Assembly (NCBI GenBank): GCA_951406725.2
Contig: OX597823.1
Location: 90,396,001 to 90,460,000, forward strand
Reading direction: 5' to 3'
DNA from: Octopus vulgaris
Taxonomy: Eukaryota
DNA length: 64,000 nucleotides
This document shows, piece by piece, positions 24,086 through 58,400 of this stretch. The notes below the pieces were generated by a model. That model ran no database searches and had not been told where the DNA came from. It saw nothing but the letters and a program-made list of their open reading frames with translations. Each line of letters starts with the position of its first letter. Position 1 is the stretch's first letter. The translations under genes were made by a program, and so were the position numbers.

Positions 24086-24795
24086 TCATCGTTTAACATC
24101 TGCTTTCCAAGCTAGCATGGGTTGGACGATTTTGACTGAGGGTTGGCGAACCAGATGGCTGCACCAGGCTCCAATCTTGATCTGGCAGTTTCTACAGCTG
24201 GATGCCCTTCCTAACGCCAACCACTCCGAGAGTGTAGTGGGTACTTTTTACGTGCCACTGGCATGGGGGCTAGTCAGGCAGTACTGGCAATGACCTCGCT
24301 CGAATCTTTTTACACATGCCACCGGCACAGTTGCCAGTAAGGCAATGTTGGTGACGATCACGCTCGAATGGTGCCCTTTTATGTGCCATGGCATGGGGGC
24401 CAGTCAGGCGGTACTGGCAATGACTTCACTCAAATCTTTTTACACATGCCACTGGCACAGGTGCCAGTAAGGCAATGTTGGTGACGATCACGCTCGAATG
24501 GTACCCTTTTATGTGCCATGGCATGGGGGCCAGTCAGGCGGTACTGGCAATGACCTCACTCGAATCTTTTTACACATGCCACTGGCACAGGTGCCAGTAA
24601 GGCAATGTTGGTGACGATCACGCTCGAATGGTGCCCTTTTATGTGCCACGGCACGGGGGCCAGTCAGGCGGTACTGGCAATGACCTCGCTCGAATCTTTT
24701 TACACATGCCACTGGCACAGGTGCTAGTAGTAAGGCGATGTTGGTAACGATCACGCTCGAATGGTGCCCTTTTACATGTCACCGGCACGGAAGTC
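24082..24795 (-). mobile_element. RTE-type LINE 3'UTR with an expanded 130-bp tandem array (about 4 units)
   Basis: The anchor (C/T)AGTCAGGC recurs at 24271, 24401, 24531 and 24661, giving a period of 130. Units are near identical and each has two related halves of about 65 bp. Confidence 0.85.
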
Positions 24796-25580: not shown

Positions 25581-26149
25581 GCACATGTGTATATATATAT
25601 ATATATATAAATATATATGCACATATATATATATATATATTACATACATAGAAAAATATGTTCATATATAAATATAGACACTACATGTGTAACAAAATGC
25701 ATTCACACACATGAAGACTCATACATAGCAAAAGAAAAAGTCACATGTTATTGTGATGTAGTCTGGGATATATTATTGACTAAAAACAAAATAAAAAAAA
25801 ACTGAAGAGAAAAAGGAGAAGCAAGAATGGTCATAACTTGAATACATTTTGATCATAGGTCTGTTTGATCAATGTTAGCCTGGGGTTAAATAATAACAAA
25901 AACAGCAACAACAATAAAACAATTTCCTTTTTTGCCAATATTTATGGCTGTAACAGTCAATGGTGCAAACTATCTAAAACTACTGACCACAGACATATAT
26001 TGAAGACCATGTCCGCAAACACGAGTACATAGCAACATAGTTTCTTCCAGGCTATTGCTAGCTATAAAAGGTTACTTGTGTAAAAAAAGAAAAGAAAAAG
26101 AAACAATTACATTGATATACTGACCACATATAGGAGGAGAGAGAGAGGA

Positions 26150-26181
<32 letters not shown>

Positions 26182-26650
26182 GGAGAGAGAGAGAGAATAA
26201 GCCATACACAAATATGTCTATGTGGCAAGAAAGCTGCTTTCATACATTGTTAACTGTAATAGCAATTCAAAATAGAAGGTGCGGCAGAAAAACCTCCCAA
26301 ATTTTATACAACAGTTTTTATGATTCTTGTAAAGTTAGACAGATAAAAATGATGTCTTAATATAACTGATGTCTCACCATTTTTAAAAATTACTATTATG
26401 GTTCGGATTGGTACACACTGTACATCTGGTGATCTGATGTTCAAACATCAACCTGTAAAATGTGAGAATATCTATTGCATCCTCCCCACACACATGTATA
26501 CAGTGTGTGGCAGAAAAATCTGCCATATTTTTTTTGAACATTAGTGTGACACTAGTAAAGTTAAGCCAGTGATAACAGCATCATCATGTTAATTATGTTT
26601 TACTGTTTTATTACCAGTCATCAGTATGGGATTGGTGCTCGCCTTGCACC

Positions 26651-26694
26651 ACAGTCTGATGAAGGTGAGAAAACTGAAACTTCGAAGTCACTGT
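26651..26694 (+). ncRNA. Minimal type-I hammerhead ribozyme with intact catalytic core
   Basis: ACAGT-CTGATGA-AGGTgagaaAACT-GAAAC-TTCGAA-GTC-ACTGT. Stem I is a perfect 5 bp, CUGAUGA and GAAA are canonical, stem III is the palindrome ACTTCGAAGT, and the triplet is GUC (predicted cut after 26689). Confidence 0.8.
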
Positions 26695-27054
26695 CAAACT
26701 TTTTTTATGTAAAAGTTAACGAATATGCAATACTAAAAATTATTCAATAATTCTCCAGTTTAAGAGTACCGTATTTTAGCATAAACAAAGAACCCTCTTT
26801 TGTTAAAAATTAGGTTAAAATAAAATGGGAGTTTCTTATACATAAATAATATTATAATCCAAATTTTAAGTCCCCAAAACAAAGGAATTCCTTGTACACA
26901 AGGGTTGTTTATATACATTAAAATATGGTAAATTGTTTTTTTTTTTTATGTAACTTGACTTTAAAGTAAACATCCACAAACATTTTGTGCCTGTGTATGA
27001 GTGTATAATGAGTATACACGCATTATGTGTTTGTATATTTATCACTCGGTGATA

Positions 27055-27451
27055 TCTGTCAAGATTTCTACAGCTGGATGCCCTTTCTAACGCCAACCAC
27101 TCCAAGAGTGTAGTGGGTGCTTTTAACATGCCACCAGCATGGAAGCCAGTCAGGCAGCACTGGCAACGACCCACACATGAATGGTGCTTATTGTGTGCCA
27201 CCAACACGGGTGCCAGTCAAGTGGCACTGGCATCAGCCACAACTACTATTTCCATTTTTGATTTCGATTTGATTGAGATTCTGATTGTGATTTGACTTTT
27301 GATTTTTGATTTTGAATTTTGAATTTTGATTTTATTCGACTGAATAAGTCTCCTCAAGCATGGCGTGTCACCCGACGATTCAGAGGTACTTTTTAAATGG
27401 GTTGGTTATGTGACACTGGTATAGGCTACAGCTGTGATCTCACTTTACTTG

Positions 27452-28125: not shown

Positions 28126-28197
28126 AGTCACTTGGAGGAAAGACGTTCATTTCCATTTTGGATGAATATACAATACATATATATATATATATATATA

Positions 28198-28612
28198 TCA
28201 TCATCATTGTTTAATGTCTGTTTTCCATGCTGGTAGGGGTTGGACGGTTCAACTTGGGGTCTTGGAAGCCAGGAGGCTGCACCAGGCTCCAGTCTGATCT
28301 GGCAGTGTTTCTACAGGTGGATGTCTTTCCTAACACCAACCACTCCGAGAGTGTAGTGGGTGCTTTTTATGTGCCACTGGCACAGGGGCCCGAGGGGGCT
28401 GGCATTGACAACATTTGGATGGTGCTTTTATGTGCCACTGGCACGGGAGCCATAGGGAGCCGGCATTGACCACGTTTGGATGGTGCTTTTATGTGCCACC
28501 AGCACAGAAGCCAGTCAAGGGGGTGTTGGCATCAGTGACATTCGGATGGTGCTTTCTACATGCCACTGGCACAGGAGCCAATTGGAGTGAGGGGGCTGGC
28601 AGCGACCACGTT
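28198..28612 (-). mobile_element. RTE-type LINE 3'UTR with four GGTGCTTTT subunits
   Basis: Conserved terminus plus repeated subunits of about 60 bp. Confidence 0.75.
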
Positions 28613-38339: not shown

Positions 38340-39660
38340 GTTTCTTTATTGGCCATGCAATGCTGAACACAGAAGGGACAAAATACTAAGTAGAGCTTTT
38401 TTTTTGGGAAGAGAAGAAGGAAAAAAAAGTGGGGAGTAGAAATTCGATCAAAAGGGATTGTAAAAAAAAAAAGGCTGAACAATAGGGATCGTGTATCACA
38501 GAGATGTCATAATGTAAAAAGGGGAAACAGATTAGGTTTATCTGTGGAAAGAAAAGCCGACTGAAAAGACCACTTTAACCTCGGGCAATTATGTCATGAA
38601 AAAAAAACACGTTACAGTGATTCTTCTTTCCTTCTTTTTTTTTTAGTTCATAGGATTATGTTCAAGCTGGCTCTGTCTTTCACACATGCTATCCTTGCTA
38701 CATTCACCCATCTTTTTTTGAAACATTCACTAGACAAAACTTCCCTCTATTCTCATCTTCCTTTTCAATTGATACTTGAAGAAGAGAGAGGAAAGTGTTT
38801 GTCTCTAGACCTTTCAGATGCATCCACCATACACATTCTTTTGCCATAGCAACAAGTATGATGAAAATGGCTCTTCCTTCTCATTTCAAAGAAGGATGCA
38901 TGACAATATTCAAAATAGACTTGGTTGATAAACTGACTTGTCCCACATGCGACAGCAGTCGTTTGACATAGGCCTACAGTTCGGAAATGGTTGGACACTG
39001 TACGAGTGCATGTAGAATGGTTTCATTGCTCTGATCACATCTTGGGCAGGTCAGTCTTGTATTTCTCGAGCCATGCCTGTAGAGCTTATCCCGAACGGGT
39101 AGCACTTCTCGATAGCACTGCCAGGCCAGGGATCTCTGGAAGTTGTCCATAGGTCCTGGCCTGAAAGTCTTCTTGAACAGGCGGGTCAGGTATTCCTCGT
39201 CAATGCCCAGGTTCACCCCGAGGTGATCGTTGTACCTCCCCTCCACTAATCCCCTATAGAATGCTTTGGTTGTGTTGAAGTCGCTCAAGGTTGATCCAGA
39301 ATGGCATAGTTGCTTCAGAGCAACACGACACTCGCAGTACCATTCACCCTTCCTTGGCCTCTTTTTGATCCTCGACTGCAGTTCAGTCATGGAGATGAGC
39401 TGCGAGAAAGTGCACCTCACAAACAGTGACCACACATGTTCACCATTGTCTACAAAGAGCCAGAGATGTCGCATTCTCAGCACGTGTCTGTGCATCATCA
39501 ACCACAGCATGCCCAGCTCTCCTTTTAACAAGTGTTGGCAGCAAACAGATTGCCTGACCATCAGAACATCCTTTCCACAAGAAGTGGAAGGGAATGCGTT
39601 CTAGTTTGGTGATGGTAGGGTTGGGACAAGGCACGGCGGTCAGGCAGTAGTAGGTGGGTG
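38340..39660 (-). mobile_element. 5'-truncated Tx1/L1-like non-LTR retrotransposon
   Basis: ORF2 C-terminus plus a 3'UTR ending ...GGCCAATAAAGAAA, followed by (TCTA)n. Confidence 0.85.
38648..39660 (-). pseudogene. LINE ORF2 C-terminal remnant with CCHC zinc finger (zf-RVT-like)
   Basis: ...LERIPFHFLWKG / CQHLLKGELGM...AWQCYREVLPVRDKL...CPRCDQSNETILHALVQCP...FKKRWVNV...LNIIL*. Contains frameshifts and stops. Confidence 0.85.
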
Positions 39661-55458: not shown

Positions 55459-58400
55459 GTAATGCATATTTATTCACATTGTTTTGAATTAATCATGCTT
55501 TATCTCATTGCTTTGAGATTTCAATGATGTGCTGGTTTAGTTTTAGAATGACATTGTAAGGTAAGTGTAAGAGGCAGAATATGGCTGGTTTGAAAATGAA
55601 AGCTATAGAATATTTGGGCTGGATGTGGTCAATTGAAATACTAAAGGTTTACAGTTGTGGATTGACAGAATCATGAGAATATCAGACAAATATGATTTGA
55701 ATATTTGTTCTTTTTTCTAATTGGTATATCCATGTATCCACAGCAAGATACATAGATATCTTTGTCCCGCTATACTTTTAATCTCTCAACTGACACCAAG
55801 CAATCTCACCTTCAATACTACTCCCCTTTCTTTAGTTGAGGGCTTTTTGTCTTGTAAGATATTTGGTGACCCTGTCAGTGTTGGTGCCACATGAAAAGCA
55901 CTGGTGCTGGTGCTGCCTGAAAGCGCCTAGTAAACTCTGTAAAAGTGGGAGGGCATCCAGCCATAGAAGACATGCTAAAATGTATAACGGAGCCTGGTGC
56001 AACCCTGGCCTTACCAGCACCTGTCAACTCATTCCAACATGGAAAACAGATGTTAAATGATGGTAATGATGATTGCTTTGAATTAATCATGTATTGTCTT
56101 GTAGCTCTGGAATTGCAATGTTGAGATTGTTTACTTTTAGAATGACATTGTAGGATAGGCATGAGAGGCAGGATCTGGTTGGTTCGAATATAAAAACAGA
56201 TGGAATATTTTGGTCAGATATGGTCATTCTGGATGTGAAAGGTTTACTGTTGTGGATTGAGAAAATCATTAGAACATCAGACAAAAGTGCTTTGCAGTAT
56301 TTTGTCTTAGCGCTTCACATTCTGAGTTCAAATCCTGTGAAAGTCAACTTTACTTTCAAATTTCCAGGGTCAATAAAATAAAATACAAATACTGGTGCCA
56401 CATAAAAAGCACCCAGCACACTCTCTAAAGTGGTTGGCATTTGGAAGGGCGTCAAGCTGTAGAAACCATGCCAGAACAGACGATTGGAACCTGGTATAGC
56501 TCTCTGGTTTGTCAGCTCTTGTTGAACTGTCCAGCCTATACCAGCATGGAAAATGGAGGTTAAAGGATGATGACAATGGTAAAGATGATGATAGTGATGA
56601 TGATAATGATGGTGATGAAGATGACACTATTTTTGCTTCAATTAAGTTTGAAAATAAAGAAAAATTTATTTAAATAACTTTGTCATTGTTACTAAGCAGG
56701 CCTATGTTCAAAGGCATTCCAACCATGACTGTCCAGTCATTTTTAATTTAATCTCATTAAATTCCAGGCTATACTATCCAATGATGTTAGGGTGTGATCT
56801 GACCCTTTTCATACTAACCCACCTGAGACCACCCCTCGTTCCATGAGACAGACTTCATATTTCAAACTGATCTAAACAAAAACTTTCCGTCAGAATTCCA
56901 TTTTAATTCATGGTTCAAATGCCAGATTAATAACGACAAAACTGTTTTACTAAATTCTTCATTTTTTTCCAAATTAATTGAAACAATGTCTGTGCATTTC
57001 AACAGAAATATGGTACCAAAAAGGTTAATAATAACAAAGTTACTGCTAAATTCTTCAATAATTTCAAAATTAATTGAAACAAAAGCAATGAATTCTTTCA
57101 ACAAAAATACAACAAAGGGTTTAAGCTGGTGTTTGGAACATAAATGAACATGGAATTCTGATGAAAGGATTTTGAACTTGTATCATTTAGTTGGAAATTT
57201 GTATCAAAGAACTAAGGCTAGTCTTGGGTGAATTGATATCAAAAAGGGTTTTAAATTAATTTTTAACTGTAAGAAAAACTTTAAAATATACAAAAGAAAA
57301 ACATGTAAAAGAGAATAAATAATTGAAGCATAACAGATCTTTTCTCTTTTACCTGCTTCAGTTTTTAGGTTGTGGCCATGCTGGGGCACCACCTCGAAGG
57401 TTTTAGTTGAATAAAACGACCCCAGTACTTATCTTTTGAAGTCTGTTATGCTGTCAGTCTCTTTTGTCAAATTGCCAAGTTAGGGGAATGTAAACAAACC
57501 AACACCAGCTGTCAAGCAGTGTGGAGACTGTATATTTTATATATATATATGTTAATGTTTGTTTTTATGTGTAGTTAAAAAAGCACCATTTGAGCATGGC
57601 TGATGCCAGTGCCACCTGACTGGTTCCCATGCCGGTGGCACGTAAAAAGCACCCAATACACTCTTGGAGTGGTTGGCATTAGAAAGGGCATCCAGCTGTA
57701 GAAACCTTGCCAGATCAGATTGGAGCCTGGTGCAGCCTTCTGGCTTGCCAGCCCTCAGTCAAACCGTCCAACCCATGCAAGCATGGAAAGTGGACGTTAA
57801 ACGACGACGATGATGACGATGATGATGTTACTCTATGCTTCTGTGGAGCACAAATTTATTATTCTTTAACAAGAATATTGCTGACAGTAACTTCAAAGTT
57901 TTGACCAGTTAAGCCATCATTGGGCTGCCTCACACACACACACCAGGCTTCTTTCAGTTTCCAGTTATTAAATCCACTCACAAGGCTTTATTCAGCCTGG
58001 GGCTTATAGTATGTGACACTAACCCAAAGTGCCACCTGATGTGGGATTATTTTCCTATTTTTCTTTTTTCTTTTTTCGCAATTAATTAAAAAATTTATTG
58101 AGCTATTATTTGAAAACTCACTGAACTAAAGGAACGGCTTGGGCGTCTTAACATACTTAACCCTAATGGTCAGAACCGAATGGGAGCAAATGAAAGAAAA
58201 ATAAAAAGCTTAGAGAGAAGCCAGCAAAAGGAGGTCATATTATTAAATTCCAATTACAAAGCTAAATGAAAAAAATTAAATAACAGAACAATAAAATAAA
58301 TAAAATAAAGTATTTTTTAGTAAAACATAAATGACTAAAGCGAATTATCAAGTAATGAGATTTGACTTCGTTTATCTCTGTTTGAAATCAATTATGAAAG

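Follow-up and report, generated by a model that had tools for sequence, protein, structure and literature searches.

What does the 44-nt motif at positions 26651-26694 (+) of a 64,000-nt stretch of Octopus vulgaris DNA (hereafter the window) represent: a ribozyme that still cleaves the RNA it is part of, as the first-pass annotation had proposed, or the remnant of one? Animal genomes contain thousands of known hammerheads of the Penelope-like element (PLE) type, and the locus is here examined together with the dispersed family to which it belongs. We are fairly confident of the following reading: an old dispersed repeat is represented here by a short copy with the hammerhead at its 5' end, probably a promoterless retrocopy of a PLE pLTR, the core of which was likely kept by chance and which likely cleaves little or nothing at the locus.

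Hammerhead motif and stem II register

The window consists of AT-rich animal DNA with many microsatellites. Within the 44 nt, CUGANGA, GAAA and an NUH triplet occur in type I order, with complementarity for three helices of 5, 3 and 3 bp (10 bp as a dimer) and the palindromic helix III of PLE-type motifs. The 5' strand of stem I, ACAGT (26651-26655), pairs with ACTGT (26690-26694) and is followed by the core C3-A9, CTGATGA, plus one unpaired extra base, A26663 (26656-26663), a stem II of GGT/ACT with a GAGAAA loop (26664-26675; pairs G·U, G-C and U-A, family majority GGC/GCC), and a segment (26676-26689) comprising G12, A13, A14 and A15.1 (GAAA, 26676-26679), the 10-nt palindrome ACTTCGAAGT (26679-26688) and the GTC triplet (26687-26689), all on the plus strand. 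Cleavage is expected after C26689, and the duplex formed by the palindrome has a predicted energy of -12.5 kcal/mol. The core letters, 5-bp stem I, GUC triplet and 10-nt palindromic stem III described in the first-pass annotation were all recovered in place, the motif has no attached ORF, as had been claimed, and the proposed hammerhead identity with a putative cut after 26689 is consistent with both the descriptor search and the family alignment.

A search with the full descriptor for type I, which demands the core, pair 15.2-16.2, at least 4 bp in stem I and a 3-bp stem II, gave a single match in the window, at 26651-26694, and the bare core pattern, a weak criterion, matched four times against 0.43 expected. 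The hammerhead motif is beyond chance. A mere arrangement of letters with no ribozyme ancestry would agree with the Rfam scans, in which no family reached the gathering score within the window and no hammerhead model was reported at E<=10 for 26000-27400, and with covariation in 26 aligned copies that did not exceed shuffles, as is expected when copies decay after insertion. However, the full descriptor was found in only 2 of 300 shuffled windows, and the family alignment, whose majority reproduces the whole fold with G10.1-C11.1, refutes this explanation, the probability of which we consider negligible.

Stem II had been drawn as A-U, G-C, a G.A mismatch and U-A, which is the wrong register. 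Across the 26 family copies, 14 of whose rows came from patterns fixing GG..CY, these positions pair in 60% of cases (the closing pair is A-U in 11 copies and open in 15), versus 87% for the register in which A26663 is unpaired and GGT (26664-26666) pairs with ACT (26673-26675), with a closing pair of G-C in 15 copies and G·U in nine. An unbiased row set agrees, with A·C in 12 and A-T in eight rows for the former closing pair and G-C in 12 and G·T in seven for the latter. The unpaired base between positions 9 and 10.1, a mark of the PLE-type variant, is thus present as A26663, and the G10.1-C11.1 pair is not found in the window copy, where a C11.1 to T change leaves a G10.1·U11.1 wobble. The earlier description of a completely canonical core holds for the catalytic letters but had overlooked this wobble and the extra base.

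The repeat copy and its neighbourhood

The hammerhead takes up the initial 44 nt of a repeat copy ~190 nt long, which belongs to an old dispersed family. The 5' part of this copy (26651-26766, +), comprising the hammerhead and an AT-rich downstream part, shows 75-91% identity to other genomic copies, and its 3' remainder (26925-26973, +) matches positions 1614-1664 of locus L004, where the match is contiguous with that to 26652-26763. Between the two parts lies a MITE-like insertion of 164 nt (26767-26930, no strand assigned) with 30-nt terminal inverted repeats, TA at both ends and arms (26767-26796 and 26901-26930) that are 77% complementary. As the repeat runs to 26763 and resumes after the MITE, the copy is ~190 nt long and older than the insertion that splits it. 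Summed contig depth over part of the MITE exceeds single-copy depth more than 1,000-fold, which suggests a very abundant family.

The window contains just one more copy of the family, which is degenerate, has a broken core and lies 31 kb away on the opposite strand (57825-57927, -); no same-strand partner copy was identified in the window, and no family copy of either strand within 10 kb on either side of it. No TATA box is present within 45 nt upstream of the window hammerhead. The upstream flank at 26605-26638 (+) is predicted to pair with the 5' half of the hammerhead, TCATCAG (26618-26624) being complementary to CTGATGA (26656-26662). A reading of 26560-26649 as an inverted, abutting family copy was rejected, as the hammerhead-region profile gave this stretch no score and several of its bases differ in the sequencing run X20; it is therefore treated only as a competing hairpin.

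A domain scan of 71 window frames, in which short exons would be missed, revealed no host gene domain. It yielded one LINE-type zf-RVT match (Pfam PF13966, E=1.3e-6), corresponding to a LINE-type fragment at 38977-39600 (-), plus two matches below the cutoff. A GC-richer high-copy repeat, also present in many of the fetched loci, forms copies and tandem arrays with periods of 130 and 61 at 24246-24774, 27054-27251 and 28173-28580. Contigs of run X9, which is RNA only by guess, cover 26234-26566 at a depth of ~3, and those on the hammerhead are exclusively paralogous, so that this run has no bearing on transcription or strand.

Family size, age and decay

A search for genomic copies, as proposed in the first-pass annotation, did reveal further ones: 26560-26760 gave 40 other matches in the 2.8-Gb assembly (the 40 scored among 137 candidates) at 75-91% identity, 37 of which start at window positions 26648-26656. 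A query placed downstream only returned 1,508 first-look candidates, a number that gives a rough family size, since 40 were scored and the query is AT-rich. Long copies carry ~700 nt of additional upstream sequence (~0.9 kb in total), and the majority sequence of the long-form profile (851 positions) contains no frame over 99 aa. The median divergence from the family majority is 21%, which is close to the PLE expansion at a Jukes-Cantor distance of 0.2 given in passages of the Octopus vulgaris repeat annotation (PMC13282606). Some family copies lie within recent segmental or tandem duplications with 96-98% identical flanks (L024-L027 and L030 at C22 2.51-2.59 Mb; L053/L054 on C12), and at L176 (~1390-1500) a 17-nt stretch of palindrome plus stem has been amplified into a local tandem array.

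Decay of the core was followed in an unbiased set of 32 alignment rows, all taken from loci that upstream queries alone had retrieved and freed of same-place duplicates. All 11 core bases are intact in one of the 32 rows, and G12 is kept in 11 and lost in 19 of 30 copies. At positions 11.1/12, the dinucleotide is CA in 11, TG in seven, TA in four and CG in three of 31 rows, a spectrum which indicates that most copies have lost the general base G12 to CpG deamination. In 2.8 Gb, four sites match the exact core-plus-palindrome pattern, the window copy included, and neutral decay predicts about three such copies (1,508 x 23/61 x 0.0054 x 0.9, where 23/61 is the share of copies long enough for the whole motif, 0.0054 the product of column frequencies and 0.9 the frequency of a pyrimidine at 11.1). 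As the window copy is one remnant of a large, old and decaying family, an intact core in a hand-picked copy is to be expected, and it likely kept its core letters by chance. Over the family, the 10 core positions other than G12 are kept in 87% of cases versus 79% for base-matched flanking columns (P=0.009), and the core including G12 in 83% versus 78% (P=0.11). The better-kept core is most simply explained by selection on the source elements, and not by pure neutrality.

Purifying selection on the window copy itself would be expected had it been domesticated as a cis-regulatory ribozyme of the host, and orthologous sequence bears on this reading. In run X20, from a more distant organism, an orthologous contig spans 26487-26801 with 24 differences and four gap letters, and the insertion is thus shared with that organism, a further sign of the age of the copy. 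Sixteen of the 24 differences could be placed, 14 of them in 26522-26653 and two at 26765-26766; the other eight are hidden under paralogous contigs. Run X7 is identical to the window over 26577-26700, with flanks that differ by about 0.5-5%, and for run X8 no long orthologous piece was among the matches listed. The presence of the insertion in at least two other organisms, the identical stretch in X7, the single placed stem change in X20, at 26653 (A>G), which turns a stem I A-U pair into G·U with pairing kept, and the rank of the window copy among only four exact-core copies are all in line with domestication. However, chance alone would leave about as many, a CpG-type change (C11.1 to T) has eroded stem II, the low divergence of the X7 flanks means that the identity says little, the eight unplaced X20 differences, spread over ~90 hidden bases, occur at the same rate as those in the flanks (14 in 167), and none of the 71 frames in the window contains a host gene domain. 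We consider domestication very improbable.

5' ends of copies and template state

The 5' ends of family copies were determined with two queries taken entirely from sequence 3' of the cut site, using all 40 matches of the first and the best 30 of 41 of the second. After removal of nine of the 70 loci (queries or duplicates), 61 copies with a placed 5' end were available. Nineteen start between -1 and +3 relative to the beginning of stem I (10 on its very first base) and four extend farther upstream, while 30 begin inside the ribozyme, five at the cut site and three later. Thus 19 of the 23 copies that reach the first bases stop there, versus 2.3 expected from the truncation rate within the ribozyme (P ~8e-16, with ends taken from local alignment and copies that are not fully independent). 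In the long copies, CTATATAAAG is present with its initial T at -31 from the hammerhead, and of 33 such copies, all decayed, 10 retain TATAWAW at -29 to -32. The 5' end of the window copy falls on this wall, at position +1 relative to the TATA box of the long copies. As the wall coincides with the first base of the ribozyme and not with the cut site, we infer that the templates were mostly uncleaved.

Two other accounts of the 5' ends were considered and set aside. A separate peak at the cut site (5/61, P=0.008) contains a single clean end (L161): L171 and L223 share ACTGT with an inverted partner, L200 has an inverted junction and L199 a low score. With only one clean end, the peak is no more than a hint. 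A splice acceptor (CAG) at the wall, as in Drosophila virilis, does not fit short copies without a common upstream exon and an A-rich upstream tract. Junctions of inverted copies often fall on the ACAGT/ACTGT of stem I (L171, L223, L170, L178 and L190), which suggests template switching or fold-back via stem I complementarity.

In the source element, going by the spacing, the first base to be transcribed would have been that at which stem I begins. Supplied in trans, a PLE reverse transcriptase (RT) may have started copying ~150 nt downstream of the ribozyme and run off the 5' end of the RNA, so that ~190-nt copies would have been pasted without a promoter, mostly from uncleaved templates. The ancestral ribozyme would have worked, if at all, as a dimer through its 10-nt palindrome or with the help of a protein. 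For D. virilis Penelope, passages of PMC2377424 describe a TATA-less internal promoter, and the promoterless state of the short window copy is therefore not certain.

Tentatively, and with a confidence somewhat short of even, we further suggest that the family represents a PLE-dependent element with no ORF of its own, in which transcription from the TATA promoter begins precisely where the hammerhead does. The ribozyme would then form a removable 5' leader of 39 nt, and the roughly one thousand copies would amount to a fossil tally, with a major class beginning at +1 (uncleaved) and a minor class beginning at the cut site (cleaved). If true, the question of whether cleavage by PLE hammerheads precedes retrotransposition could be addressed with in vivo evidence on a genome scale; the role of these hammerheads is still called unclear in passages of PMC8557442. 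The 5' wall 31 nt below the TATA box is independent genomic evidence that points in the same direction as the uncleaved insertion substrate identified in vitro for one element (PMC11167929). In the openly accessible literature, with subscription papers, Repbase/Dfam and closed supplements outside the scope, no paper was found on octopus hammerheads or on such a 5'-end pattern.

Class assignment

According to passages of PMC4209133, PLE hammerheads are marked by an unpaired base between positions 9 and 10.1, a G10.1-C11.1 pair and a palindromic helix III, and part of its supplement gives the consensus CUGANGAH. Excerpts of PMC8557442 and PMC3846280 describe head-to-head inverted copies and solo pLTRs for PLEs, and those of PMC3846280 also a TATA box with an Inr-like motif in the pLTR. 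In the octopus family, the palindromic helix III ACTTCGAAGT permits a double hammerhead, which is a mark of the PLE-type variant, the hammerhead is located near the 3' end of the element, 5' truncation is frequent, and inverted head-to-head copies abutting within 11 nt occur at 17 of 86 distinct loci.

No RT or GIY-YIG frame was collinear with the family within 6 kb upstream of any of 20 long copies (with a query from one sister family only), and one opposite-strand fragment lies 5 kb away at locus L244. Without a linked frame of either kind, PLE membership rests on the non-coding hallmarks. Same-strand repeats were present at two of the 86 loci, neither of which flanks an ORF as partial tandems forming direct pLTRs would, and no such tandems were found upstream of the 20 long copies. 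A walk upstream from long copies in search of an ORF ended in a TA-rich patch. A 100-nt piece upstream of two long copies, considered as the end of an endonuclease gene, proved to be an unrelated high-copy repeat (711 candidates), whose other 29 loci have no copy of the family next to them. This repeat, ~350 nt long, occurs in tandem and inverted pairs (L127-L156), and no hammerhead core was found in it.

The CTGATGAAGG-N8-CCGAAAC layout recurs in a sister family, which is located downstream of an RT and an endonuclease-like frame on the same strand (L124), where the RT frame matches Pfam RVT_1 at E=9e-6, below the cutoff, and the endonuclease-like remnants were judged by eye. The elements at L124 (3803-5650) and L095 (C1 near 148.40 Mb) are of a broken Penelope/Poseidon type, in the order RT frame, endonuclease-like remnants, (AAT)n and a minimal hammerhead, GACAC CTGATGAAGG..CCGAAAC GTT GTGTT. 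The sister family accounts for about nine of the 30 loci fetched by the pattern search, with a same-strand copy of the family studied here a few hundred bases farther downstream. A third repeat with a hammerhead, CTGATGAAGAGCGTAGGCATGAAAC, is found upstream of a long family copy at L229 (minus strand) and L061 (~1000-1100), and L006 (1-909) contains an open 303-aa frame that by eye resembles a Tc1/mariner-like transposase, ~600 nt upstream of a family copy.

The missing protein-coding partner would also suit a family that does not derive from PLEs, such as a decayed non-LTR retrozyme or another hammerhead-bearing SINE-like element; the ~190-nt unit is within the retrozyme range, and retrozymes, for which a derivation from pLTRs has been argued (bioRxiv 10.64898/2026.07.22.740005), leave dispersed monomers. 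Such an origin is decidedly unlikely, as no head-to-tail arrays were found (neither of the two same-strand loci among the 86 is a unit array), the copies start at stem I, whereas monomers derived from circles would tend to begin at the cut site, and head-to-head inversions and the TATA spacing are PLE features. The family is likely a pLTR remnant or a non-autonomous PLE derivative, going by these features of its copies, and the window copy itself is, by membership tests, neither an autonomous PLE nor a retrozyme.

Predicted folding and cleavage prospects of the window copy

The claim that the motif could cleave any plus-strand transcript was not supported by folding predictions, nor was activity as a monomer. 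Under a nearest-neighbour model that leaves out Mg2+ and tertiary stabilisation and was run with no known-active control, the hammerhead fold of the bare 44-mer has a predicted monomer weight of only ~3.6e-6 (2e-8 in the register first drawn), which drops to 6e-12 with 50 nt of upstream flank, where TCATCAG would pair with CUGAUGA in a long hairpin. The pairs of stem II have predicted probabilities of 0.005-0.02 in the window copy versus 0.7-0.8 in L069, which keeps GGC/GCC. We predict no cleavage by the monomer and, in a read-through transcript, a ribozyme shut down by its upstream flank.

The idea of palindrome-mediated dimers fared better, as, for the bare 44-mer, the double hammerhead is predicted to be only 3.4 kcal/mol less stable than the best dimer fold, a smaller gap than in any other of the eight copies tested. 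This gap widens to 9.8 kcal/mol with 11-nt flanks and to 28.6 kcal/mol with a 50-nt upstream flank. According to passages of PMC4209133 and of the review PMC6765202, single PLE hammerheads do not cleave and dimers do so little, and the anole PLE hammerhead requires protein for cleavage, insertion proceeding mainly from unprocessed RNA (PMC11167929). A U·U mismatch at the foot of helix II does not abolish cleavage by a retrozyme hammerhead of the axolotl, as reported in part of PMC7229834, and G10.1·U11.1 need thus not be fatal; no cleavage rate for a hammerhead with G·U at 10.1-11.1 was found in the literature. Slow in vitro cleavage by a trimmed dimer of the window copy at high Mg2+ would have about an even chance.

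These considerations bear on whether the window copy, with the same origin as set out above, may still be competent, so that read-through or intronic plus-strand RNA would be cleaved at a low rate by trans dimers or with an RNA chaperone and no selected function. In its favour, all catalytic bases, the 5-bp stem I and the perfect palindrome are intact, the dimer gap of the bare 44-mer is small, and PLE hammerheads do cleave as dimers or with protein. However, the predicted pairing of the upstream flank with CUGAUGA and the gap of 28.6 kcal/mol in its presence, the lack of a same-strand partner in the window or within 10 kb on either side, and the scarcity of partners elsewhere, as the central CG of the palindrome survives in only 10 of 31 copies, speak against it, and we regard a competent copy as unlikely. 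Meaningful cleavage at the window locus is improbable. The preferred reading of the locus is that of a retrocopy with little or no cleavage.

Comparison with known systems

The single window locus matters little and is best read as a well-preserved fossil of a known kind. The family-level 5'-end pattern is a useful by-product that can be tested on all copies by computation alone.

Metazoan non-LTR retrozymes resemble the octopus family in being non-coding, dispersed as monomers, equipped with a type I hammerhead and likely mobilised by PLE enzymes (passages of PMC7229834 and bioRxiv 10.64898/2026.07.22.740005). In contrast to the octopus family, which lacks arrays, their 150-450 nt units are described there as head-to-tail arrays expressed as circles. 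The Penelope pLTRs of Adineta vaga are alike in their length of ~200 bp, a TATA box with an Inr-like motif, the occurrence of solo pLTRs and a head-to-head inverted pLTR with a palindromic junction (excerpts of PMC3846280). The A. vaga families have intact or traceable ORFs, unlike the octopus family, and these excerpts do not relate the 5' ends of copies to the hammerhead.

The Poseidon PLE of the green anole (PAc; PMC11167929) also contains a hammerhead in its pLTR, with an ATG inside CTGATGAAG, and its internal RT start downstream of the ribozyme, together with uncleaved RNA, would explain the short octopus copies. PAc is active, tandem and protein-coding, whereas in the octopus family the frame that follows the ATG runs for no more than 20 codons and every copy is old. 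The hammerheads of PLE pLTRs share with the octopus motif the type I topology, the unpaired base between 9 and 10.1 and a short helix I (passages of PMC4209133, and the dimer study of Lunse et al. as given in part of PMC6765202), as well as a small palindromic helix III, an AU-rich 3' flank and mostly solitary, dispersed copies (PMC4209133). They differ from it in the palindrome, which has 10 nt in the window copy, and in that no RT or endonuclease frame is linked to the octopus family. In Schistosoma PLE hammerheads, as far as described in the same passages, helix II has 7-8 bp, in contrast to only 3 bp closing with G·U in the window copy. The 44-nt motif works like a dimer-dependent hammerhead of the PLE type, and the sequence that carries it is a solitary, MITE-split and decayed pLTR-like retrocopy.
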